Under the pieces are notes generated by a model. The model was not told the origin of the DNA. It saw only the letters and a list, made by a program, of their open reading frames with translations, and did not search any database. The translations under genes were made by a program, and so were the position numbers. Positions 31,066-64,000 of a stretch of DNA of 64,000 nt are shown in pieces (the stretch's first letter is position 1; every line of letters starts with the position of its first letter). The stretch comes from an uncultured Collinsella sp. (lineage in GTDB: Bacteria > Actinomycetota > Coriobacteriia > Coriobacteriales > Coriobacteriaceae): positions 33,062 to 97,061 of the forward strand of contig CABRXF010000003.1 in NCBI GenBank assembly GCA_902474885.1. The letters are read 5' to 3'.

Positions 31066-31121
31066 TAGTCATTGGGGACGTTCTTGTTTGGCTAGTCGTT
31101 TAAGAACGTCCCCAATGACTA
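31066..31121. repeat. Perfect 20-bp inverted repeat (TAGTCATTGGGGACGTTCTT ... AAGAACGTCCCCAATGACTA) with a 16-nt loop
   Basis: Read directly from sequence. Lies upstream of the first YhgE/Pip gene. Confidence 0.7.
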
Positions 31122-39116: not shown

Positions 39117-39229
39117 ACGTCCGTCGCTCTTTTCTTTTCGCCCCGTTCTGTCCTTGGCCGCCTTGGAAGCCGAATGGATGCTCGTACCATCATTCGGTTT
39201 TCAGGGCAGCCACGGGCCTACGAAATGGT

Positions 39230-39353
39230 CCCTTTTCCTCCGTCCCCAACAGATCACGTGGTCCGAAGGGGACGGAGGAAAAGGGATCACAAACAGCGGC
39301 GGCGCGTCTGACCGAACGAGTCCCCATACCCTCGTTCGGTCAGACGCGCCGCC
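39230..39353. repeat. Two adjacent long perfect hairpins: an 18-bp stem at 39230-39285 and a 23-bp stem at 39298-39353
   Basis: CCCTTTTCCTCCGTCCCC(n20)GGGGACGGAGGAAAAGGG and GGCGGCGCGTCTGACCGAACGAG(n10)CTCGTTCGGTCAGACGCGCCGCC. Confidence 0.7.
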
Positions 39354-39420
39354 GCGTTGCTGCTTTGTGCCGTATAATGTCCACTACCTATGACGCGATA
39401 CAAAAGAAAGGTGTTTGCCC

Positions 39421-40734
39421 ATGCAGGCACAGAAGGCGGAGGGAACCCGCGACCTTATCGGCGCCGAGATGCGCGCCTGGCAAAAGATGCAGCAGATTGC
39501 TGCCGGCGTATTCGAGCCGTTTGGCTTTAAGCCCATCGAAACGCCCGCGATCGAGCAGGTGGACGTCTTTGTCCACGGCATCGGCCAGTCGACCGACGTC
39601 GTTCGCAAGGAGATGTTCCGCGTCTTTAGCGGCGCCAACCTGGAGCGCGTCTTTACCGAGGGCACCGACACCAAGCTCAAGCCCAAGCAGCGCCTGGCAC
39701 TTCGCCCCGAGGGCACGGCCGGTGTGGTGCGCGCCGTCGTGGAGAACAATCTGGTGCCCCAGGGCTCCACGCCGTTTAAGGCGTACTACGCCGAGGCCAT
39801 GTTCCGCGGCGAGCGTCCCCAGAAGGGCCGCCTGCGCCAGTTCCACCAGGTGGGCATCGAGTGGCTCGGTGCTCCCGATCCGGCGGCAGACGCCGAGTGC
39901 ATCATCATGCTCATGGAGTTCTACAAGCGCCTGGGCTTCGACCTTTCCAAGCTCCGTCTGCTCATCAACTCGATGGGTGACGCCCAGTGCCGTCCGGCTT
40001 ACCGCGAGCAGGTCAAGCAGTTTATCCTCGATCACGCCGACGAGATGTGCGACGAGTGCCGCGAGCGCGCCGAGCTCAACCCGCTGCGTGCCTTCGACTG
40101 CAAGAACGACCACTGCCGCGAGATCATGGCCGACGCGCCGCTGATGGGCGACAACCTGTGCGACGAGTGCCGCGAGCACTACGAGCAGGTCAAGCGCTAT
40201 CTGGATGCCGCCGGTATCGAGTATGTCGAGGATCCCACCTTGGTGCGCGGCCTGGACTACTACACCCGTACTGTCTTTGAGGTCGAGGCCCCTGGCGCCG
40301 GCGTCGGCTCCATCGGCGGCGGCGGCCGCTACGATGGCCTGGTCGAGCTCGAGGGTGGCAAGCCCACGGCGGGCGTCGGCTTTGCTGTCGGTTTTGAGCG
40401 CGCCCTGCTGGCCCTGCAGGCCTTTGGCAGCGATTTGGGTGCCGATGAGGCCCCGTGCGTCTATGTCGCCAACGCCGGCAAGGAGCTGCGTCAGAACGTC
40501 TTTGCCATTACGCAGGAGCTTCGCGCCGCAGGGATTGTGACCGAGGCCGACTATCAGGGTCGTTCGCTCAAGGCCCAGTTTAAGCAAGCCGATAAGGTAG
40601 GCGCCAAGCTCATCTTGGTCCTGGGTGGCGACGAGCTTGCCGCCGGCAAGGTCAAAGTGCGCGACATGCAGAGCCATGACGAGGTGCTCGCCGATCTGGA
40701 CAACGTCGTCGAGGCGGTTCGCGAGCGCCTGTAG
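39421..40734 (+). CDS. hisS: Histidine--tRNA ligase
   Basis: GTRDLIG..., ...RPEGTAGVVRAV, ...FRGERPQKGRLRQFHQ (motif 2), ...GGGRYDGL (motif 3). ATG at 39421 preferred over the track's TTG at 39415. A TATAAT box lies at 39373. Confidence 0.9.
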   Translation: MQAQKAEGTRDLIGAEMRAWQKMQQIAAGVFEPFGFKPIETPAIEQVDVFVHGIGQSTDVVRKEMFRVFSGANLERVFTEGTDTKLKPKQRLALRPEGTAGVVRAVVENNLVPQGSTPFKAYYAEAMFRGERPQKGRLRQFHQVGIEWLGAPDPAADAECIIMLMEFYKRLGFDLSKLRLLINSMGDAQCRPAYREQVKQFILDHADEMCDECRERAELNPLRAFDCKNDHCREIMADAPLMGDNLCDECREHYEQVKRYLDAAGIEYVEDPTLVRGLDYYTRTVFEVEAPGAGVGSIGGGGRYDGLVELEGGKPTAGVGFAVGFERALLALQAFGSDLGADEAPCVYVANAGKELRQNVFAITQELRAAGIVTEADYQGRSLKAQFKQADKVGAKLILVLGGDELAAGKVKVRDMQSHDEVLADLDNVVEAVRERL

Positions 40735-40979: not shown

Positions 40980-43805
40980 ATGGGAGGAAACGTGGCTGAG
41001 AACCTAAGCAACCAGTCTGTACCCGAAGCCGCGGCGCGTGTCGCTGCCGTGGTCAACCGCCTCGTTAACCGAATCGGCTCGAATGCCGAGTCCAGGGAGC
41101 GTCTCGCCGAGATCGAGATCCCCGAGGAGCTGCGCGACAATCTGGCGCTGTTCTTGCGCCTGGAGCGCCGTGTGCTTAGCGAGTATGATCCCGAGATCGC
41201 GGACCTGTTCGACAAGATTTTGACAGCCGAGATTGTGGTCAATGCCGGCAACCCCGGTACCTGCGCTGCCGACGAAGCCGTCGACGAGCAGGGCGTGCCC
41301 ACCGCCGACGAGCCCACTGCCGTGGCATTTCGTGAGGTCGTCGATTTGATCGACAGCCTGCCGCTCGATAAGCAGCAGGTCATCGTTCGCGCCTTTACGA
41401 GCTTTTTCCATCTGGCAAACCTGTCGGAGGAGAACTACCGTGTGGCGCAGCTGCGCGAGCGCGAGGCCGGTGCGTCGACCGATACCGAGGTCGATCCTGC
41501 CAACGAGCTTACCGTTGCCTATCACCAGCTGGTGAATGAGCTGGGTGTCGAGGGTGCCAACGAGCTGCTCGACAAGCTCGAGTTCCACCCTGTCTTTACC
41601 GCACATCCCACCGAGGCCCGTCGTAAGGCCGTCGAGGGCAAGATCCGCCGTATCTCCAACCTGCTGGAGGAGCGTCCGCGTCTGGGCGGCTCCGACCTGG
41701 TGGAGAACGAGCGCCATATGCTGCAGGAGATCGACGCCCTGGTGCGTACGAGTCCCATCGCGCTCAAGAAGCCCACGCCGGTCGAGGAAGCCGATACCAT
41801 CATCGACATCTTCGATAACACGCTGTTCGACGTTATCCCCGTTATCTATCGTCGTTTTGACGATTGGGTGCTGGGCGACAAGGCCGGTACTGTGCCGCCG
41901 CTGTGCCCGGCGTTCTTCCATCCCGGCAGCTGGATCGGTTCCGACCGCGACGGTAACCCCAACGTCACCGCCAAGGTGAGCCGTGAGGTCGCCGCCAAGT
42001 ACTTTACGCACATGGTGCTCAAGCTCGAGGACAAGTGCCGCCACATCGGCCGCAACCTCACGCTCGAGGCTACCTACAGCAAGCCGTCGGCCGAGCTCAT
42101 TAACCTGTGGAACCATCAGGTCGAGATGAGCCCTCGTTACACGGCCCGCGCCGAGCTGATCTCCGAGCACGAGCCGCATCGCGCCGTCATGCTCGTCATG
42201 GCCGACCGCCTGAACGCCACCGTCCGTCGTATCACCGACACCATGTACCACAGCGCCGACGAGTTCCTGGATGACCTGCGCGTCGTCCAGCGTTCGCTGG
42301 CCGCCTGCGGTGCCGTCCGTGCTGCCTACGGCCCGGTCCAAACCATCATCTGGCAGGTCGAGTCCTTCGGCTTCCATATGGTCGAGATGGAGTTCCGTCA
42401 GCACTCCGTGGTGCATGCCCGCGCCCTTAAGGATATCCACGAGAACGGTATCCATGGCGACCTGCAGCCCATGACGCGCGAGGTCATCGATACCTTCCGC
42501 GCTATCGGCTCCATCCAAAAGCGCTACGGCAAGAAGATGGCGCACCGCTACATCATCTCGTTTACCAAGAGCGCTCAGCATGTGGCCGACGTCTTTGAGC
42601 TGGCGCACCTGTCCTTTGCACACGAGGAGGATGTCCCCGAGCTCGACGTGATCCCGTTGTTCGAGCAGCTCGAGGACCTCGAGGGCTGCGTCGACGTGCT
42701 CGATCAGATGCTTACGCTGCCCGTGGTGCAAAAGCGCCTTGCCCAGACCAACCGCCGCATGGAGGTCATGCTGGGCTATTCCGACTCTTCCAAGGATGCC
42801 GGTCCTACCACGGCCATGCTCGCGCTGCACTCCGCGCAGGAGCGCATCGCCAAGTGGGCAGAGAAGAACGATATCGACCTGGTGCTCATGCACGGTCGCG
42901 GCGGTGCCGTGGGCCGTGGCGGCGGCCCGGCCAACAAGGCCGTGCTGGCGCAGCCCAAGGGTTCGGTCAACTGCTTCTTTAAGCTTACCGAGCAGGGCGA
43001 AGTCATCTTTGCCCGTTACGGCAACCGCACGCTGGCTCAGCGCCATGTTGAGTCCGTTGCCGCCGCAACGCTTTTGCAGTCGGCCCCGAGTGTCGAGAAG
43101 ACCAACACCGAGACCACGCAGAAGTTCTGGGATATGGCCGAGAAGCTCAACACTGCAAGCCACGAACGCTATCTGGACCTGCTGAACACCGAGGACTTTA
43201 CACCGTGGTTCTCGACCGTGACGCCGCTGACCGAGGTCGGTCTGCTGCCGATCGGCTCGCGTCCCGCCAAGCGCGGTCTGGGCGCCAAGTCGCTCGATGA
43301 CCTGCGTACCATCCCGTGGATCTTCAGCTGGAGCCAGGCGCGCATTAACCTGGCCGCTTGGTACGGTCTGGGCACCGCCTGCGAGCAGCTTGGCGATCTT
43401 GACCAGCTCAAGGCTGCCTACCAGGAGTGGCCGTTCTTCCGCACCTTTATCGACAACATCGAGATGTCGATCGCCAAGACCGACCAGCGCATCGCCAAGA
43501 TGTATCTGCATCTGGGCGACCGCGATGATCTGTCCAAGAAGGTCTTTACCGAGATGCAGCTCACCCGTAAGTGGGTCCTTGCCATCGTCGGTGATGAGTG
43601 GCCGCTGCAGCGTCGTCGCGTGCTCGGCTGCGCCGTTCGCGTGCGTAATCCCTACGTCGACGCCCTGTCCATCGCCCAGGTCCGCGCCCTTCGCGAGGTG
43701 CGTATGAACCAGGACGAGATGGCCGAGGAGAAGAAGGCCGAGTACATGAGCCTGATTCTTTCGACTGTGACCGGCGTCTCGGCAGGATTGCAGAACACGG
43801 GGTAA
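40980..43805 (+). CDS. ppc: Phosphoenolpyruvate carboxylase
   Basis: VFTAHPTEARRK, MHGRGGAVGRGGGP, and the C-terminal ...LQNTG. Confidence 0.9.
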   Translation: MGGNVAENLSNQSVPEAAARVAAVVNRLVNRIGSNAESRERLAEIEIPEELRDNLALFLRLERRVLSEYDPEIADLFDKILTAEIVVNAGNPGTCAADEAVDEQGVPTADEPTAVAFREVVDLIDSLPLDKQQVIVRAFTSFFHLANLSEENYRVAQLREREAGASTDTEVDPANELTVAYHQLVNELGVEGANELLDKLEFHPVFTAHPTEARRKAVEGKIRRISNLLEERPRLGGSDLVENERHMLQEIDALVRTSPIALKKPTPVEEADTIIDIFDNTLFDVIPVIYRRFDDWVLGDKAGTVPPLCPAFFHPGSWIGSDRDGNPNVTAKVSREVAAKYFTHMVLKLEDKCRHIGRNLTLEATYSKPSAELINLWNHQVEMSPRYTARAELISEHEPHRAVMLVMADRLNATVRRITDTMYHSADEFLDDLRVVQRSLAACGAVRAAYGPVQTIIWQVESFGFHMVEMEFRQHSVVHARALKDIHENGIHGDLQPMTREVIDTFRAIGSIQKRYGKKMAHRYIISFTKSAQHVADVFELAHLSFAHEEDVPELDVIPLFEQLEDLEGCVDVLDQMLTLPVVQKRLAQTNRRMEVMLGYSDSSKDAGPTTAMLALHSAQERIAKWAEKNDIDLVLMHGRGGAVGRGGGPANKAVLAQPKGSVNCFFKLTEQGEVIFARYGNRTLAQRHVESVAAATLLQSAPSVEKTNTETTQKFWDMAEKLNTASHERYLDLLNTEDFTPWFSTVTPLTEVGLLPIGSRPAKRGLGAKSLDDLRTIPWIFSWSQARINLAAWYGLGTACEQLGDLDQLKAAYQEWPFFRTFIDNIEMSIAKTDQRIAKMYLHLGDRDDLSKKVFTEMQLTRKWVLAIVGDEWPLQRRRVLGCAVRVRNPYVDALSIAQVRALREVRMNQDEMAEEKKAEYMSLILSTVTGVSAGLQNTG

Positions 43806-43832
43806 TCGATAGCCCTGTGGCTCTCACCGGGA

Positions 43833-43951
43833 CCCGATGGGTTTCCCTCTGAATGCGTCCTCGCACTTGAAGCCCCCTTATCCTGCTCCTTCGGAGCTGT
43901 GGATAGGGGGGCTTCGTGCTGCGGAATGCATTCAGAGGGAAACCCATCGGG
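43833..43951. repeat. A 119-bp nested palindromic element. The outer stem is a perfect 24-bp repeat, the inner stem is ~14 bp, and the apical loop is GCTCC-TTCG-GAGC.
   Basis: cccgatgggtttccctctgaatgc...gaagcccccttatcc..gctccTTCGgagc..ggataggggggcttc...gcattcagagggaaacccatcggg. Confidence 0.75.
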
Positions 43952-44179
43952 CCCCTTCGTCCTCGGTCTTCTGGGATTAAAGCTGAGGAGAAGAATGGCG
44001 CGCTTCTCGCCTTACGACTGTAGCGGCCGCGGTCCCGTTTGGGATCGCGGCCGTTTTGTTGTGGGTCAAATATGAACGTTATGTTAACGACTCGGTGGAC
44101 GGTGGCGTTTTTCGGTGAGCGGCGTATCCTTCCAACGGTTTATCTAGTGTGTCAGTTGAAAGGAAGAGGGCGCTCGTCA

Positions 44180-45457
44180 TTGTTTGAATGTGAACTGCCG
44201 TTTGACCACAAGACGTTGCATCTGGAGCTCGAGGATAAGAACTTTGCAGGTGTGATGGAAGGTCATCAAAACGAGTTTAAGACCACGAAATCGCAGGAAG
44301 AGCTGGTGGAGGAGTCACTTGCCAACCCTTACGGCTCGCCTTCGCTCGAGGAGCTCTGTGCTGGCAAGAAGGATATCGTCATCATTAGCTCCGACCATAC
44401 GCGTCCCGTTCCTTCGCGTGTGACGATGCCTATTCTGCTGCATCACATCCATTCTGCTGCGCCTGAAGCGCGCGTTCGCATTCTGGTTGCTACGGGTATG
44501 CATCGTCCGTCGACGCACGAGGAGCTCGTCAACAAGTACGGCGAGGAGATCGTTGCCAACGAGGAAATCGTTATGCACGTCGCGACTGACGACAGCATGA
44601 TGAAAAAGATCGGCACCCTGCCTTCTGGTGGCGAGTGCATCATCAATAAGATTGCCGTCGATTGCGATCTGCTGCTTGCCGAGGGCTTTATTGAGCCGCA
44701 CTTCTTTGCTGGTTTCTCCGGCAGCCGCAAGTCCGTCCTGCCTGGCATCGCCAGCTACAAGACCATCATGTACAACCACAACGGCCAGTTTGTGAACGAT
44801 TCCCATTCGCGTGCCGGCAACCTGTGCCATAACCACGTGAGCGAGGACATGTTTGCCGCTGCCGAGATGGCTCACCTTGCCTTTGTGCTGAACGTGGTGC
44901 TCAACGGCAAGCACGAGGTCATTGGCTCCTTCGCCGGCGACATCCACAAGGCACACGAGGCTGGCTGCGAGTTCGTAAAGAGCCTTGCCGGCGTTGAGCC
45001 CGTCGAGTGCGAGATTGCCATCACCACCAACGGCGGCTACCCGCTCGACCAGAACATCTACCAGGCCGTGAAGGGCATGTGCTCTGCCGAGGCCACGCTT
45101 CCCGAGGGCGGTGTGATCATCGACGTCGCCGGTTGTGCCGACGGTCACGGCGGCGAGGGCTTCTATCACAACATCGCCGACAACGATCCGGCAGAGTTTG
45201 AGCGCGCCTGCATCGACCGTCCTAAGGACGAGACCCTGCCCGACCAGTGGACGAGCCAGATCTTTGCCCGCATCCTGGCGCATCACCCCGTGATCATGGT
45301 CACCGACCTGTGCGATCACCAGATGATTAAGGATATGCACATGACGCCGGTCAACACCCTCGAGGAGGCGCTCAAGCTCGCCTTTGAGATGAAGGGTGCC
45401 GATGCCAAGGTGGCCGTCATTCCCGATGGCCTGGGCGTTGTTGTCGCTCAGCACTAG
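44180..45457 (+). CDS. larA: Lactate racemase (nickel-pincer cofactor dependent, DUF2088 family)
   Basis: IVIISSDHTRPVPS, ...FIEPHFFAGFSGSRK, ...ITTNGGYPLDQN. Start placed at TTG 44180, after an AAGGAAGAGGG ribosome-binding site, by alignment to the LarA N-terminus. The ORF track opens earlier at 44039. Confidence 0.75.
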   Translation: MFECELPFDHKTLHLELEDKNFAGVMEGHQNEFKTTKSQEELVEESLANPYGSPSLEELCAGKKDIVIISSDHTRPVPSRVTMPILLHHIHSAAPEARVRILVATGMHRPSTHEELVNKYGEEIVANEEIVMHVATDDSMMKKIGTLPSGGECIINKIAVDCDLLLAEGFIEPHFFAGFSGSRKSVLPGIASYKTIMYNHNGQFVNDSHSRAGNLCHNHVSEDMFAAAEMAHLAFVLNVVLNGKHEVIGSFAGDIHKAHEAGCEFVKSLAGVEPVECEIAITTNGGYPLDQNIYQAVKGMCSAEATLPEGGVIIDVAGCADGHGGEGFYHNIADNDPAEFERACIDRPKDETLPDQWTSQIFARILAHHPVIMVTDLCDHQMIKDMHMTPVNTLEEALKLAFEMKGADAKVAVIPDGLGVVVAQH

Positions 45458-45506
45458 CGCGCGGCCTAAACGAATCGTTTATAACTGACAAGAAAGATAA
45501 GGTTTT

Positions 45507-46238
45507 ATGCTTACCAAACTCCTCTGCGAATTCGGCGCAACGGCCCTCATGATCATCTTTGGCGTGGGCGTGCACTGCGATACCGTGCTTAAGGGCACCA
45601 AGTATCAGGGCTCCGGCCACATGTTTGCCATCACCACTTGGTCTTTTGGCATCTCGGTCTGCCTGTTTGTCTTTGGCGGCGCCGTGTGCATGAACCCGGC
45701 TATGGTGCTTGCCCAGTGCATCGTAGGCCTGGTGCCGTGGAGCAGCTGCATCCCCTTCATGATTGCCGATATGCTCGGCGGCTTTGTGGGCGCCGTAATC
45801 GCTTGGCTTATGTATGCCGATGAGTTCAAGGCTTCCGAGGGTGTCGTCGACCCCATTGCCCAGCGCAACATCTTCTCGACCAACCCCACCACCGAGGGCA
45901 CGAACTATGTTCGCAACTTCTTCTGCGAGGCTATCTGCACCTTCGTGTTCATTAGCGCCATCCTTGCTGCCGCTAGCCGCGCCGGTGAGAACGTTTTGAT
46001 GCTCGCCATCTGCGTCGGTCTGATCGTTTGGGCCGTTGGCATGGGCATGGGCGGCATCACTGGCTTCGCCATGAACCAGGCTCGTGACCTTGGTCCTCGC
46101 ATGGCTTATCAGGTGCTGCCGATCAAGAACAAGGCTGACAACAACTGGAAGTACGGCCTGCTTGTTCCTGGCATTGCTCCGTTTGTTGGTGCCGCTCTGG
46201 CCGCGCTGTTTGTGCATGGTTTCTTGGGCATGTTCTAG
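45507..46238 (+). CDS. larD: MIP-family aquaglyceroporin (LarD-like lactate channel / GlpF-like)
   Basis: Six transmembrane helices. First NPA motif present (CMNPAMVLAQ). The second is NQA (AMNQARDLGPR). Lies next to larA, as in the Lactobacillus lar operon. Confidence 0.65.
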   Translation: MLTKLLCEFGATALMIIFGVGVHCDTVLKGTKYQGSGHMFAITTWSFGISVCLFVFGGAVCMNPAMVLAQCIVGLVPWSSCIPFMIADMLGGFVGAVIAWLMYADEFKASEGVVDPIAQRNIFSTNPTTEGTNYVRNFFCEAICTFVFISAILAAASRAGENVLMLAICVGLIVWAVGMGMGGITGFAMNQARDLGPRMAYQVLPIKNKADNNWKYGLLVPGIAPFVGAALAALFVHGFLGMF

Positions 46239-46260
46239 TCCAAAACAATTGATATAACGC

Positions 46261-46390
46261 CCGGGTCCGGCATAGGTTAACTTTCCGCCGCGTCCTCGGA
46301 CATGCAAGAAGCTCCCGCTGCGCACTTCGTGCGGCGGGAGCTTCTTGCGTCCTGCGGAGTGCGGCGGAAAGTTAACCTATGCCGGACCCT
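46261..46390. repeat. A 130-bp nested palindromic element, homologous to the one at 43833-43951. The outer stem is ~29 bp, the inner stem is 14 bp, and the apical loop is GCAC-TTCG-TGC.
   Basis: ccgggtccggcataggttaactttccgccgc...caagaagctcccgctgcgcacTTCGtgcggcgggagcttcttg...gcggcggaaagttaacctatgccggaccc. The internal gcgtcctcg and ctgcggaRtgc motifs are shared with the other element. Confidence 0.75.
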
Positions 46391-46544
46391 GCGGGAATTC
46401 AGTTGCGTTCGAACAAGCAACCAACATATATATCTGAATTTGGATGTGGTGGGCACTTTGTTGTTAGGCGCTTTGAGGTGCGAGTGACACTTTGGGATGC
46501 GTGGCGGCCTGGGTTGGGGCGATGCTTTGGGATGAGGGGTTTAC

Positions 46545-47084
46545 TTAGTTGAAGAGGGGTTTTATGGCTGAGAGGTAGTCTTTGGCTACGTCGGCTTTAT
46601 CTGCTTGGAAGTTGTGCCAGGCCCACCATTGGACCATTCCTACGAAGCTTGAGGCTATGTGGTGTAGCAGGAAGCTTCGGTCCATGGTGGCGGCGGGGCC
46701 GTTTGGGTCGGTGGGGACGGTTTCGGCTGCTCGTGACATGATGGTCTTGCGTAAGCAGTCGGCGAAGACGCGTGAGCCGGCGCCGGCTACGAGGGCTCGA
46801 ACGCCCTGGCGGCGCTCCCAGAGGTTGTTGAGGATATGTTCGACCTGCACGAGTGGGTCGTCGAGCGGTGTGCCATCGTCGTCGAGGGCGTGGGTGCAGA
46901 TGTCGCTTACGAGCTTGGACAGTAGGTCGTCTTTGCTCTTAAAGAGGCCGTAGAACGTGGCCCGACCCACATGGGCGCGCGCGATGATGTCGCCGACGGT
47001 GATCTTGCCGTAGTCCTCCTCGCGAAGGAGCTCGGAAAACGCCGTGACAATGGCGGCGCGGCTTTTGGTTTTGCGGGCATCCAT
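46545..47084 (-). CDS. TetR/AcrR family transcriptional regulator
   Basis: HTH ITVGDIIARAHVGRATFYGLFKSKDDLL. Its ATG lies 2 nt after the larC stop. Confidence 0.8.
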   Translation of the reverse strand: MDARKTKSRAAIVTAFSELLREEDYGKITVGDIIARAHVGRATFYGLFKSKDDLLSKLVSDICTHALDDDGTPLDDPLVQVEHILNNLWERRQGVRALVAGAGSRVFADCLRKTIMSRAAETVPTDPNGPAATMDRSFLLHHIASSFVGMVQWWAWHNFQADKADVAKDYLSAIKPLFN

Positions 47085-47086
47085 GG

Positions 47087-48004
47087 CTATGCGTCCACGT
47101 GAACAAGCAGGCAACGGAGCGTGCCGGAGCAGCCCTCGTAGGGGCGCTTACCGGCGCCGTAGCCGACGGCTTCGATGCGGTAGCGGGCCGGCAGTTGGTC
47201 GGACGTACGCAGCGCGGTGACGATGGCGGCGCCCGTGGGCGTCACGAGCTCGCCGGCGACCGGTGCGGGCGTGAGGGCGATATTGCCTGCCTGGCACAGA
47301 TTGACAACAGCGGGGACGGGAATGGGCATAAGGCCGTGGGCACAGTGGATGGTGCCGTGGCCCTCGGAGAGCGACTCGACGACAATCTCCTCGATGCCCA
47401 GGTCATCGAGACAGATGGCGACAGAGCAGACGTCGACGATGGAGTCGACGGCGCCCACCTCGTGGAACATGACGGTCTCGGGCGTTTTGCCGTGAGCCTT
47501 GGCCTCGGCGGCGGCGAGCGTGGTAAAGATGGCGAGGGCGCGACGCTTGGCGCCATCGCTTAGCTGCGAGCCGTCGATGATGGCGGTGACGTCCGCCAAA
47601 GAACGATGGTGATGGTGGTGGGCGTGATGGTGACCCTCGTGGCCATGGCCGTGGGTCTCATGGTCATGCTCGTGGCAGTGCTCGTGTTCGTGCTCGCCAT
47701 GGTCATGATGGTGGTGTTCATGCTCGTGCGTGTGCTCGACGGCTGCTTCGTTGCCGTAGAGCCAGGCCATATCGTGATCGTGGTTCTCGAGCTCCTCTGC
47801 AAGCTGGACGTCGAAATCGCAGGCGTCGATGCCATGCTTGTTTACGCGCGTGACGGCGATCGTAAAGCCGTCGACCGGCAGTGTGGCGAGCTGTTTGCGC
47901 AGGTGCTCCTCGCTGGCGCCCAGGTCGAGCAGGGCCGCGACGGTCATATCGCCGCTGATGCCCGAGGTGCCGTCGATGATAAGCGTGTGCTGATGGTTTG
48001 ACAT
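47087..48004 (-). CDS. larC: LarC-like nickel-insertion protein (DUF111). N-terminal LarC1 domain only, with a His-rich insert.
   Basis: LIIDGTSGISGDM N-terminal motif. A ~45-aa His-rich tract (HTHEHEHHHHDHGEHEHEHCHEHDHETHGHGHEGHHHAHHHHH). 305 aa against ~420 aa for full-length LarC. No LarC2-like C-terminal domain downstream. Confidence 0.7.
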   Translation of the reverse strand: MSNHQHTLIIDGTSGISGDMTVAALLDLGASEEHLRKQLATLPVDGFTIAVTRVNKHGIDACDFDVQLAEELENHDHDMAWLYGNEAAVEHTHEHEHHHHDHGEHEHEHCHEHDHETHGHGHEGHHHAHHHHHRSLADVTAIIDGSQLSDGAKRRALAIFTTLAAAEAKAHGKTPETVMFHEVGAVDSIVDVCSVAICLDDLGIEEIVVESLSEGHGTIHCAHGLMPIPVPAVVNLCQAGNIALTPAPVAGELVTPTGAAIVTALRTSDQLPARYRIEAVGYGAGKRPYEGCSGTLRCLLVHVDA

Positions 48005-48014
48005 GGAATGCTCC

Positions 48015-48797
48015 TTAACGGGCGCGGGATGTGCCGGCGCTCAGATGATTGATAAGACTTGCCTGGTAGGCGGCACCAAAGCCGTTGTCGATATTGACGA
48101 CCGAAACGCCGCTGGCACAGGAGTTGAGCATGGCGAGCAGTGCGGCCATGCCACCAAAACTTGCGCCGTAGCCCACGCTGGTGGGAACGGCGATGACCGG
48201 ACAGCTCACCAGACCGCCGATAACGCTTGCCAACGCGCCCTCCATGCCGGCGATGGCGATGACCACCTGTGCCTGGGCAAGTTCCTCAGCATGAGCGAGC
48301 AAGCGGTGTAGGCCGGCGACACCTACGTCGTAGAGGCGATCGACCTCGTTGCCGTAGAACTCGGCCGTCAGTGTCGCCTCTTCGGCGACGGGCAGGTCGC
48401 TCGTGCCGGCGCAGGCGACGACGATGCGTCCGTTGCCGGTAGGGGAGGGCTTGCCGCCCACCAGGGCGAGCTGGGCGTCCGGGGTATATCCCAGATCGAT
48501 GTCGTTGCCGAGAAGCTCAGCGGTGCGCGCGGCTTTTTCGGCATCCAAGCGTGTGACCAGGATGCGCTCCTGGCCTGCATCGAGTAATGCTTTGATGATG
48601 GCAGCAATTTGTTCGGCGGTTTTACCGGCACCGTAGACAACCTCGCCGGCTCCCTGGCGCACTCCGCGCGAAAGATCGAGCTGCGCAAAGCCCAAATCGG
48701 CGGTCGGAGCCGTCTGGATGCGCGTAAGGGCGACGGCCGGGGTGACTGATCCGCCGGCAACATCGCTCAGCAGCTGCTCAAGATCTCGCTTATCCAT
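48015..48797 (-). CDS. larB: LarB, pyridinium-3,5-biscarboxylic acid mononucleotide synthase (PurE-like)
   Basis: PurE-like C-terminal fold (VVIAIAGMEGALASVIGGLVSCPVIAVPTSVGYGASFGGMAALLAML) with the LarB-type N-terminal extension. GAAGGGAA ribosome-binding site before the ATG at 48797. Confidence 0.75.
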   Translation of the reverse strand: MDKRDLEQLLSDVAGGSVTPAVALTRIQTAPTADLGFAQLDLSRGVRQGAGEVVYGAGKTAEQIAAIIKALLDAGQERILVTRLDAEKAARTAELLGNDIDLGYTPDAQLALVGGKPSPTGNGRIVVACAGTSDLPVAEEATLTAEFYGNEVDRLYDVGVAGLHRLLAHAEELAQAQVVIAIAGMEGALASVIGGLVSCPVIAVPTSVGYGASFGGMAALLAMLNSCASGVSVVNIDNGFGAAYQASLINHLSAGTSRAR

Positions 48798-48911
48798 ATA
48801 TGTTCCCTTCGACGGCGCAAAGTCTAGCACTCAAAGGGTATGTTTCCGAACACTAAGACAAAATTGTTCGGAAACTATAGGACAGGCTGATTCAATTGTT
48901 AGACAGATCGG

Positions 48912-49616
48912 CTAGTCGCGCAGGATGATGTCCATGGCGAGCATCAGGTTGCGCTCGTCGATGGTAAACGGGGCGGCTTCGCGCGTCTTGGGCTTGGCGC
49001 AAAACGCGATGCCCGTGCCCGCGGCCCGGATCATGGGGATGTCGTTTGCCCCGTCGCCAATAGCGACCGTGTGGGCCATGTCGACGCCGCACTCAACTGC
49101 CCAGTCCAGCAGCTGGATGAGCTTGGATTCCTTGGTCACAATGTCTGTCGCCAGCTTACCCGTGAGCTTGCCGTCTACGACCTCCAGACGATTGGCCAGG
49201 CAAAAGTCGATACCCGCGGCAGCCGCGATCTTGTCGGCGACCTCGTGGAAGCCGCCGCTCACCACGCCGACCTTCCAGCCCTTGCTGTGCGCCGAGCGCA
49301 CAAGCTCCAACGCGCCGGGGGTAAATGTCACACGCTCAAAGGCGCGCTCGAACACGCTCTCGTCCAGGCCGGCGAGTAGCCCCACGCGTTCCTCGAGCGC
49401 TTGCTTAAAGTCAAGCTCGCCGCGCATGGCGTGTTCGGTGATCCGCGCAACTTGTTCGCCTACGCCGGCCTCCTCGCCCAACAGGTCGATGACCTCCTGG
49501 TTGATGAGTGTGGAGTCGATATCCATAACGATGAGGCGTGCAGTCATGACGGGCCTTTCCGAGTGCAGTTGTGTTGGGGCACATTGTCGCACGGGGCGCG
49601 CCTTGGCGACGGCCAC
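48912..49616 (-). CDS. serB: Phosphoserine phosphatase (HAD family)
   Basis: LIVMDIDSTL (DxDST), ...GGFHEVADKIAA, ...AIGDGANDIPMIRAAG. Start uncertain: GTG at 49616 or the internal ATG before MTARLIVMD near 49547. Confidence 0.75.
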   Translation of the reverse strand: MAVAKARPVRQCAPTQLHSERPVMTARLIVMDIDSTLINQEVIDLLGEEAGVGEQVARITEHAMRGELDFKQALEERVGLLAGLDESVFERAFERVTFTPGALELVRSAHSKGWKVGVVSGGFHEVADKIAAAAGIDFCLANRLEVVDGKLTGKLATDIVTKESKLIQLLDWAVECGVDMAHTVAIGDGANDIPMIRAAGTGIAFCAKPKTREAAPFTIDERNLMLAMDIILRD

Positions 49617-49803
49617 GGTGCGGCAATTGTTTCGTCTCCGTCAAGTCTTTGGGCAGGAGCTACTTTTCCGCGGCACATCGACACAGGTGCGATAAGATAG
49701 AACGCCATGTCTGGCTGCGCGGTTTACGCAGGCTGGGCAAATCTGTACGACGCCGCCCGGAACGACACGGGGCGGCACAGATCCATAAAGGAGGATCACT
49801 GGT

Positions 49804-51687: not shown

Positions 51688-51890
51688 CGCGGAAAGTGCG
51701 TCCCGGAATCTGCGTCTGGAATGGGTCGCGCTTTCCCAAAGGGGTCCTCTGGGAAAGCGCGACCCAGAATTCGGCAAAATAATGGGGCGCAGTTTCCGGT
51801 TGAGCTGTCTAACGGAAACTGTGCCCCAGAATGAGCGCTCAAAACGGGGCAGGCTTTCCGCAACAACTGTCTGGAGGAAAGCCTGTCCCA
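51688..51890. repeat. Tandem array of ~3.5 related palindromic hairpin units with a ~60-bp period: GGGnCGCnnTTTCC-loop-GGAAAnnGCGnCCC-AGAAT
   Basis: gggtcgcgctttccc/gggaaagcgcgaccc, ggggcgcagtttccg/cggaaactgtgcccc, ggggcaggctttcc/ggaaagcctgtccc, plus a half unit ggaaagtgcgtcccggaat. Confidence 0.7.
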
Positions 51891-51895
51891 GTTTC

Positions 51896-63787: not shown

Positions 63788-64000
63788 CTGTTTGGTCAGG
63801 TACCCCCTCTTGCGACGTGCATTTTTTGGAGTATTCAGCAATGGCGTGTCCCGAAAGAGGCTAGAACGACTGTTTTAAGTGCCGCCGATGGCGTATTTCG
63901 CCGTCGGCGGCACTTTTTATGCCGATCGGACGCAATATGCGCACCAAACGGGGCGCCGAGGACGGCGCGCGGCGCGCTTCGATGCTGAATACTCCCAAAA

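Follow-up and report, generated by a model that had tools for sequence, protein, structure and literature searches.

We analyzed a 64,000-nucleotide stretch of DNA from an uncultured Collinsella sp. (contig CABRXF010000003.1; the whole stretch is referred to as the window), in which two long palindromic elements, designated E1 and E2, are associated with the genes ppc, larA and larD. The ppc gene (positions 40980-43805, + strand; Pfam PEPcase) carries E1 at its 3' end. It is followed by larA (44180-45457), which has a TTG start, and by a gene for a larD-like MIP channel (45507-46238, + strand; Pfam MIP), which carries E2 at its 3' end. Beyond larD lies a convergent tetR-larC-larB group. An earlier note on this DNA had pointed out E1 and E2 as related palindromes that flank larA and larD like the borders of a cassette. 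Both elements were found at these sites as nested, very stable hairpins, and it is well supported that they are two copies of a family of interrupted palindromes of ~130 nucleotides (nt), restricted to the Collinsella aerofaciens complex. It is also very probable that this is a dispersed family located at gene ends, and not a set of cassette borders.

E1 occupies 43829-43955 at its full extent, counting one mismatch, and E2 occupies 46263-46389. Each is a complete interrupted palindrome on the + strand, E1 of subtype A and E2 of subtype B, as seen from inverted repeats, the fold and the score with covariance model R1, which is described below (112 bits for E1 and 147 bits for E2, both on the + strand). 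From the base upward, the two share a layout of outer stem, core, 3-bp helix, 2-nt bulge on the 5' side, inner stem and apical hairpin. The long perfect outer stems reported in the earlier note (24 and ~29 bp) were recovered: in E1, the 5' arm (43833-43856) pairs perfectly with the 3' arm (43928-43951) over 24 bp, and in E2 a perfect 29-bp stem is formed by 46263-46291 and 46361-46389. A second perfect stem, which had been claimed for both, is present in E2 (15 bp, 46304-46318 and 46334-46348), whereas the 15-bp inner stem of E1 (43869-43883 and 43901-43915) includes one G:T pair. RNA minimum free energies were -104.8 kcal/mol for E1 and -119.8 kcal/mol for E2, with z-scores of -13.6 and -15.4, respectively, relative to dinucleotide shuffles.

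The conserved 5' core consists of GTCCTCG, CAC (which enters the 3-bp helix) and a TT bulge in E1 (43857-43868), and of GTCCTCG, GAC and an AT bulge in E2 (46292-46303). The conserved 3' core consists of GTG, which pairs with CAC, and CTGCGGAAT in E1 (43916-43927), and of GTC and CTGCGGAGT in E2 (46349-46360). The 3-bp helix thus differs between the elements by a compensatory swap, CAC/GTG in E1 versus GAC/GTC in E2. The core is asymmetric in both, with 5' GTCCTCG lying opposite 3' CTGCGGARW (CTGCGGA(A/G)T in E1 and E2). Since this 'internal loop' can be paired in part (UCC with GGA, and G with C), the predicted structure is better described as a helix with conserved irregularities. The segment of inner stem and apex (43869-43915 in E1, 46304-46348 in E2) encloses TG-CTCC-TTC-GGAG-CTGT and TG-CGCAC-TTC-GTGCG, respectively. 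The apex had been taken for a GNRA-like TTCG cap, a description that does not hold: it is neither GNRA nor the canonical cUUCGg, and instead is a 5-bp stem on a UUC triloop, with UAC in other family members. In E2 and the B-type majority, a conserved 5' UG bulge precedes the apical stem. On inspection, K-turn, sarcin-ricin and GNRA/UUCG motifs did not fit the core or the apex. A small open reading frame (ORF) across E2 was also considered and rejected, as the core varies in length (63-69 nt) and changes in the stems are not codon-aware.

The sequences GCGTCCTCG and CTGCGGARTGC occur in E1 and E2 in identical order and orientation, in agreement with the shared internal motifs of the earlier note, and the combined pattern GTCCTCGSACWTG-N30-60-GTSCTGCGGA has two exact matches in the 64-kb window, namely E1 and E2, with 0.00 expected. 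Other long hairpins of the window (39226-39355, 31066-31121, 51722-51894 and others) lack the core and hence are not family members.

A scan of 185,579 species genomes with the exact core pattern revealed at least 120 stretches; the numbers of ppc/lar sites and of outer-stem classes given next are among these listed matches. All of them were from Collinsella/Coriobacteriaceae, except for a few labelled Acutalibacteraceae or 'uncultured bacterium', which we take to be mis-binned. Only ~30 of the 120 matches listed came from the ppc/lar locus, and about three quarters were located at loci unrelated to lar. On the basis of outer-stem sequences, the copies could be sorted into ~15 locus classes, and these ~15 orthologous loci represent a lower bound on the number of copies per genome. 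Each locus is orthologously occupied across many species-level genomes. Within one genome, the copies have quite different stems; E1 and E2, for example, share only the core. The earlier suggestion that E1 and E2 might belong to a REP/BIME-like family (repetitive extragenic palindromes and bacterial interspersed mosaic elements) was thus borne out insofar as their homology is genuine and the family to which they belong is a dispersed repeat of this kind.

All copies are intergenic. With GTCCTCG first and CTGCGGA second, the element shares its strand with the nearest upstream gene, whose stop codon lies 38-65 nt before the core; the hairpin base accordingly has a median position of 10-24 nt past the stop. 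In 13 of the 15 locus classes, the base of the hairpin is ~10-25 nt past the stop codon of a same-strand gene, and the same number of classes are co-oriented with the upstream gene (two-sided binomial p ~0.007, by our own arithmetic). The upstream genes identified by Pfam code for PFOR, PFK (pfkA), class II FBA (fba), PTA (pta), Fe-ADH, a glycyl-radical (PFL-type) enzyme, GroEL, a class IV aminotransferase (ilvE), a GHMP (homoserine-type) kinase (thrB) and an OppF-type ATPase (oppF), in addition to ppc and the MIP protein (larD). A more diverged copy is located downstream of asd (aspartate-semialdehyde dehydrogenase), a gene identified from its translation and not by Pfam. These genes are unrelated to each other and are mostly involved in central metabolism or code for chaperones; from their identity and high GC content at third codon positions, we infer that they are abundantly or highly expressed.

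E1 begins 24 nt past the ppc stop codon, on the ppc coding strand. E2 begins 24 nt past the larD stop codon, on the larD coding strand, and the stop codon of the convergent tetR is 155 nt away from it. The interval from E1 to larA contains a canonical intrinsic terminator (44023-44062, + strand; a 15-bp GC-rich hairpin followed by a T-run), which is conserved in strain loci L001-L010 (loci are numbered with the prefix L). Because this terminator separates E1 from larA, E1 is inside the 3' untranslated region (UTR) of ppc and outside the larA leader. A terminator scan of the region flagged only this site (as 44022-44055) and neither element, and no U-tract was found after E1 or E2; the right flanks of the elements begin with CCTGCG, not with T-runs. 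E1 and E2 had also been discussed as bidirectional terminators. A bidirectional hairpin makes sense for E2, which lies between convergent genes; without a U-tract, however, the elements are not terminators themselves. Canonical terminators are also present 3' of the copies at the ilvE and ppc loci and at some PFOR and pta loci.

An alignment of 36 sequences representing all locus classes (A1) was prepared, and covariance model R1 was built from it. The consensus fold of A1 has 52 pairs, 39 of which show compensatory changes, including all 27 pairs of the outer stem. Standard pairs make up 96.7% of the cells, versus 72% with shuffled partners and 42-52% with slid partners. Sense-strand scores with R1 were 110-150 bits, versus 35-93 bits for the antisense strand of these sites, and the model detected only ~8 extra copies in ~1 Mb of Collinsella DNA. 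The sense fold was the more stable one in 101 of 121 unique copies, and G:U pairs in the core occur on the sense strand only.

Comparison of ten strain loci (L001-L010) revealed how these elements vary at ppc-larA-larD. The MIP protein is unchanged in more than 1000 blocks of human-gut assemblies, and the E2 orthologs beside identical MIP proteins have different, yet complementary stems. Across strains, the larD end preserves the core and apex, while the outer and inner stems differ at many positions with complementarity kept. The ppc-larA spacer varies from 375 to ~1000 bp, and the ppc end is a mosaic in which a full element of E1 type (A) or E2 type (B) is followed by 'right-half' copies and a shared tail. 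Such tandem mosaics, composed of right halves of subtype A or B, occur in L001, L003, L006, L007, L009, L010 and other loci (corresponding to window positions 43952-44020). A small GGCGCGCTTCGCGC hairpin comes before every right-half copy, and the shared tail (TGCGATGTCCGGTCTTCGGCGGATTA...) comes after it. Sixteen solo right halves were found and no true solo left halves. In many strains, E1 is swapped for a different subtype, with larA unchanged and its proximal leader constant.

Sequence exchange was also evident among loci. Identical core and inner-stem variants occur at different loci in different genomes (e.g., GAAAGAACCCCCG at larD, PFOR and ilvE), and orthologous loci carry different inner-stem and core variants (L011-L130, all classes), which suggests that cores have been exchanged between copies. 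Some genomes contain chimeric arms; the copy at L060 3550-3686 combines the 5' arm of the adh copy with the 3' arm of the PFOR copy. In L075 (7512-7648), the core is inverted relative to its flanks at a position internal to a 112-kb contig. Inverted cores were likewise seen in L098 (197-331) and L033 (101-237), but at contig starts, and these two may be fold-back artefacts. In L085 (~7692), a copy ends abruptly at the apex, with foreign sequence beyond. Contigs often break inside the elements, and some of the chimeras, inversions and truncations may be assembly artefacts. A Logan contig with an identical ppc was examined as a possible marker of the transcript end and discarded, as the contig simply breaks inside the palindrome.

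We consider the best overall explanation, and a rather probable one, to be a gene-end family with the role of a super-hairpin in the 3' UTR. The RNA role is favored by the fixed orientation of the elements, their tight spacing from the stop codon, an asymmetric core in which G:U pairs are confined to the sense strand, the greater stability of the sense fold in most copies, and the presence of canonical terminators downstream of several copies. The mechanism at the RNA 3' end is put forward tentatively, with its chances slightly below even. The element would be co-transcribed as part of the 3' UTR of the upstream gene and would fold into a helix of ~55 bp, which would obstruct 3'-to-5' exonucleases and keep the transcript insulated from neighboring ones, so that the 3' end of the mRNA is protected or delimited. 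At ppc, ilvE and some other loci, the hairpin is placed upstream of a canonical terminator. The irregular core (5' GUCCUCG / 3' CUGCGGARW) could be a recognition or cleavage point for a protein, and RNase III, or a different double-stranded-RNA-binding factor, is the natural candidate by analogy with the processing hairpins of phage T7 and the Correia elements of Neisseria. The proposal draws on this analogy and on the anatomy of the elements. An extension of this reading, which we regard as fairly unlikely, is that a dedicated trans-acting factor (a protein or RNase) docks at the invariant core and that the elements form a post-transcriptional 3'-UTR regulon. If so, the regulon would coordinate the abundance of the chief enzymes of fermentation and glycolysis in Collinsella (PFOR, PFK, FBA, PTA, ADH, PFL, PPC, lactate channel) and of GroEL, and exchange between loci would keep the cores uniform.

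Several observations weigh against the 3'-UTR role. One copy lies antisense between the gene for a transketolase subunit (tkt) and ftsE. A second, diverged copy at oppF is situated ~170 nt beyond the first in the opposite orientation (L106 3474-3610, + strand, with equivalents in L034, L041, L076 and L093); its core is GTCCTCGGGCATG ... CCCCCTGCGGAATG, it is at no gene's 3' end on its own strand, and it adjoins a tRNA-like sequence that, read by eye, we take to be tRNA-Leu. A ~55-bp helix is far longer than a stabilizer or terminator needs. The excess stability of the sense strand stems mainly from the conserved core, and the invariance of the core is partly built in, since sites were ascertained by an exact core pattern; the apex, the bulges and the base before GTCCTCG lie outside the search pattern, yet are conserved. 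When the arms of the outer stem were compared with each other without gaps, polymorphic mismatches of the G:T type (23 independent events) were about as frequent as those of the A:C type (20 independent events). RNA under selection normally tolerates G:U far better than A:C. An apparent excess of G:U pairs was initially an argument for RNA-level selection of the outer stem and was dropped, as the count of RNAfold pairs is biased and the arm-to-arm comparison shows no excess. The arms are also nearly perfect over ~30 bp, which argues against a purely RNA explanation. The similar frequencies of G:T and A:C events and the near-perfect arms suggest arm-to-arm correction, a DNA-level constraint or selection against any imperfection.

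These features bring up the main rival, a role of the REP/BIME type in chromosomal DNA, in which the elements would be sites bound or cleaved by gyrase or a nucleoid protein, or supercoil-absorbing cruciforms, behind heavily transcribed genes, with the half-palindromic boxes GTCC-N2-GGAC and GTCC-N3-GGA as protein sites. It would account for arms that are almost wholly Watson-Crick, with G:T not in excess over A:C, and for core boxes that recur as a direct repeat, CGTCCT(N)CGGA, one in each arm and each palindromic in duplex DNA. The chimeric arms, the L075 inversion, the L085 truncation and the tandem right halves resemble the behavior of a recombination hot spot, and BIME-gyrase sites in E. 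coli likewise lie after strongly transcribed genes. However, the core keeps its orientation relative to upstream transcription in 13 of 15 classes, across species and though inversion is possible; the tight spacing from the stop codon is hard to explain for a topological site, and the sense-only G:U pairs of the core do not fit a DNA site either. We consider a DNA-level role unlikely on its own account, although the RNA and DNA roles may both hold. A mobile or recently mobile non-autonomous element, such as a miniature inverted-repeat transposable element (MITE) or a REPIN-like element, whose positions would reflect an insertion preference (e.g., for terminator regions) and not function, is improbable. 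The family is dispersed, its common ancestry is visible even in the outer stems (GGG-TTAC-YTTCC-RAAAC), identical core variants recur at different loci, and half copies and tandem mosaics occur in the ppc-larA spacer. On the other hand, copies within a genome differ greatly in their stems, loci are occupied orthologously across many species-level genomes, neither a target-site duplication nor a conserved terminal repeat nor a GTAG-type REP head was found, and no transposase was seen beside any copy in ~1 Mb of flanks, which were not searched exhaustively.

The remaining explanation is that of the earlier note, in which E1 and E2 delimit a larA-larD cassette, as its borders or as sites of recombination, or E1 acts as a regulatory RNA in the larA leader. 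The two elements do flank larA-larD in the same orientation, and Collinsella species differ in the region downstream of ppc. The family, however, also follows at least 11 other unrelated genes and is spread over many unrelated sites with no link to cassettes, a pattern that the earlier note had itself named as a refutation, and each copy is tied to the stop codon of its upstream gene, E1 to that of ppc and E2 to that of larD. L002 retains larA-larD and E2 in the absence of E1, with other genes in place of ppc. In Collinsella species whose ppc is 78-87% identical (L131-L134), hisS-ppc is conserved and the downstream content differs; one of these species has the arrangement ppc-IS110 transposase-aspS without any lar genes, and others have unrelated genes there. 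No family element follows ppc in these more distant species, which have an ordinary hairpin or terminator at that spot. The block missing from the ppc-IS110-aspS genome extends from the ppc end to the aspS leader, so that the variable unit includes tetR, larC and larB beyond E2, and E2 lies within it and not at its border. The whole lar cluster (larA, larD, tetR, larC, larB, HAD) therefore behaves as a single indel between ppc and aspS. The leader hypothesis conflicts with the terminator at 44023-44062, which intervenes, and with the swapping of E1 subtypes next to a constant larA-proximal leader. Both versions are therefore highly improbable. E1 belongs to the 3' end of ppc and E2 to the 3' end of larD, and they flank larA-larD simply because the genes are arranged in this order.

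Among known systems, REP/BIME elements of E. coli and other Proteobacteria resemble the Collinsella family in being extragenic palindromes dispersed in the genome, typically in 3' UTRs or within operons, and they are thought to stabilize upstream mRNA and also bind gyrase and IHF. The Collinsella elements are likewise extragenic and mostly in 3' UTRs, and the mosaic tandems of the ppc-larA spacer recall BIMEs. REPs differ in that they are 20-40 nt long, have a GTAG head, exist in hundreds of near-identical copies and are linked to REP-associated tyrosine transposases (RAYTs), whereas the Collinsella elements are ~130 nt long with nested stems, were seen at ~15 loci (a lower bound) and have locus-specific stems. 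No conserved head of the GTAG type was found, the sequences at the stem base differing between loci, and no RAYT was noticed beside the copies, for which no systematic search was made.

The Correia elements of Neisseria and the ERIC/IRU elements (enterobacterial repetitive intergenic consensus/intergenic repeat units) of Enterobacteria are similar in size and form, being 100-150-nt palindromes that make long hairpins; co-transcription is a feature of these known elements and is proposed here. Correia elements are cut by RNase III, and the effect of ERIC on mRNA stability is dependent on orientation. Like MITEs, these elements end in conserved inverted repeats, have target duplications (TA in the case of Correia), occur in many similar copies and are polymorphic for presence or absence. 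In contrast, conservation in the Collinsella family is limited to the central core and does not include the termini, and the same positions are occupied across species. In none of the locus classes is the maximal palindrome bordered by a direct repeat. A MITE of the Correia/ERIC type was rejected on these grounds, i.e., locus-specific outer arms and absence of a target duplication, and because the ppc end in distant species has a different hairpin and not an empty site.

The RNase III processing hairpins of phage T7 (R1.1 type) resemble the family in having two stems, lower and upper, separated by an asymmetric internal loop. When the T7 loop is cleaved, the upper hairpin remains on the upstream message and protects its 3' end, as is proposed here for the Collinsella elements. 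T7 sites are much shorter and unrelated in sequence, and the likeness is one of architecture only. Intrinsic terminators also place a GC-rich hairpin right after the stop codon; the Collinsella elements differ from them in the lack of a U-tract, a hairpin several times longer, a conserved internal core and, after E1, a separate terminator. Integron attC sites were dismissed on inspection, as E1 has neither GTTRRRY nor RYYYAAC, and the GTTAAC of E2 falls within the variable stem and lacks conservation among the other copies. REP/BIME, ERIC and Correia are the nearest kinds of elements, and the family nevertheless lacks their defining features (GTAG head, conserved termini, target duplication) and appears to have a low copy number.

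The family appears to be previously undescribed. No description of palindromic elements, REPs or RNA motifs of this kind in Collinsella was found in the literature searched, and Rfam 15 (including Collinsella-1) has no match near the elements at gathering thresholds; with E-values of up to 10 allowed, the hits were confined to generic models of microRNA-precursor hairpins, far below threshold. The core sequence is absent from the first 200 of the 408 supplementary files of a survey of structured RNAs in the human microbiome (PMC8040213).

A well-defined family with strong covariation support lies behind core energy-metabolism genes of an actinobacterium that is very abundant in the human gut, and the conserved motif inside the elements makes it attractive to look for a binding partner. 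To our knowledge, bacterial cis-elements acting from the 3' UTR are few, and families of extragenic palindromes are well characterized almost exclusively in Proteobacteria, Neisseria and streptococci. The elements also explain contig breaks, chimeras and strain-variable spacers in Collinsella assemblies, and they advise caution in that paired hairpins of such a kind should not be read as cassette borders.

Some other features of the window are of interest. Downstream of E2, a tail (46390-46534, + strand) begins with CCTGCG right after the stem and contains an AT-rich box with ATCTGAATTTGGATG (46432-46446) and two exact CTTTGGGATG repeats at 46490-46499 and 46525-46534; it is a weak feature, common to a subset of loci. 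Motifs TCTGAAT and CTTTGGGR resembling this tail occur 56-97 nt past the core in some PFOR copies and in those at ilvE, pta and tkt, so that the repeated unit may reach beyond the hairpin into the tail.

The region that varies between Collinsella species corresponds to window positions 43806-49700. Immediately beyond it, an aspS RNA motif (RF02930) is located at 49709-49792, and three alike tandem hairpins (TGGGxCGCxxTTTCC... type) lie downstream of aspS at 51722-51894. Upstream of ppc, two adjacent long hairpins (39226-39355), one with 32-nt arms that are 84% complementary and the other with perfect 25-nt arms, are found without the family core just 5' of an ORF of 439 amino acids (39415-40734, + strand), which is hisS by its position in related loci. 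A tRNA-Ser(GCT) gene occupies 18920-19010, and an inverted copy of its 17-nt 3' arm at 19067-19083 may be a remnant of an integration site. The end of the window (63823-64000) carries an 18-nt inverted repeat, TTTTTGGAGTATTCAGCA / TGCTGAATACTCCCAAAA, whose arms are separated by 142 nt and which reaches the window edge. Its motif also ends an insertion of ~500 bp in the ppc-larA spacer of L001, L007, L009 and L010 and is found to the right of the ilvE element, and it possibly represents a second, MITE-like repeat family.

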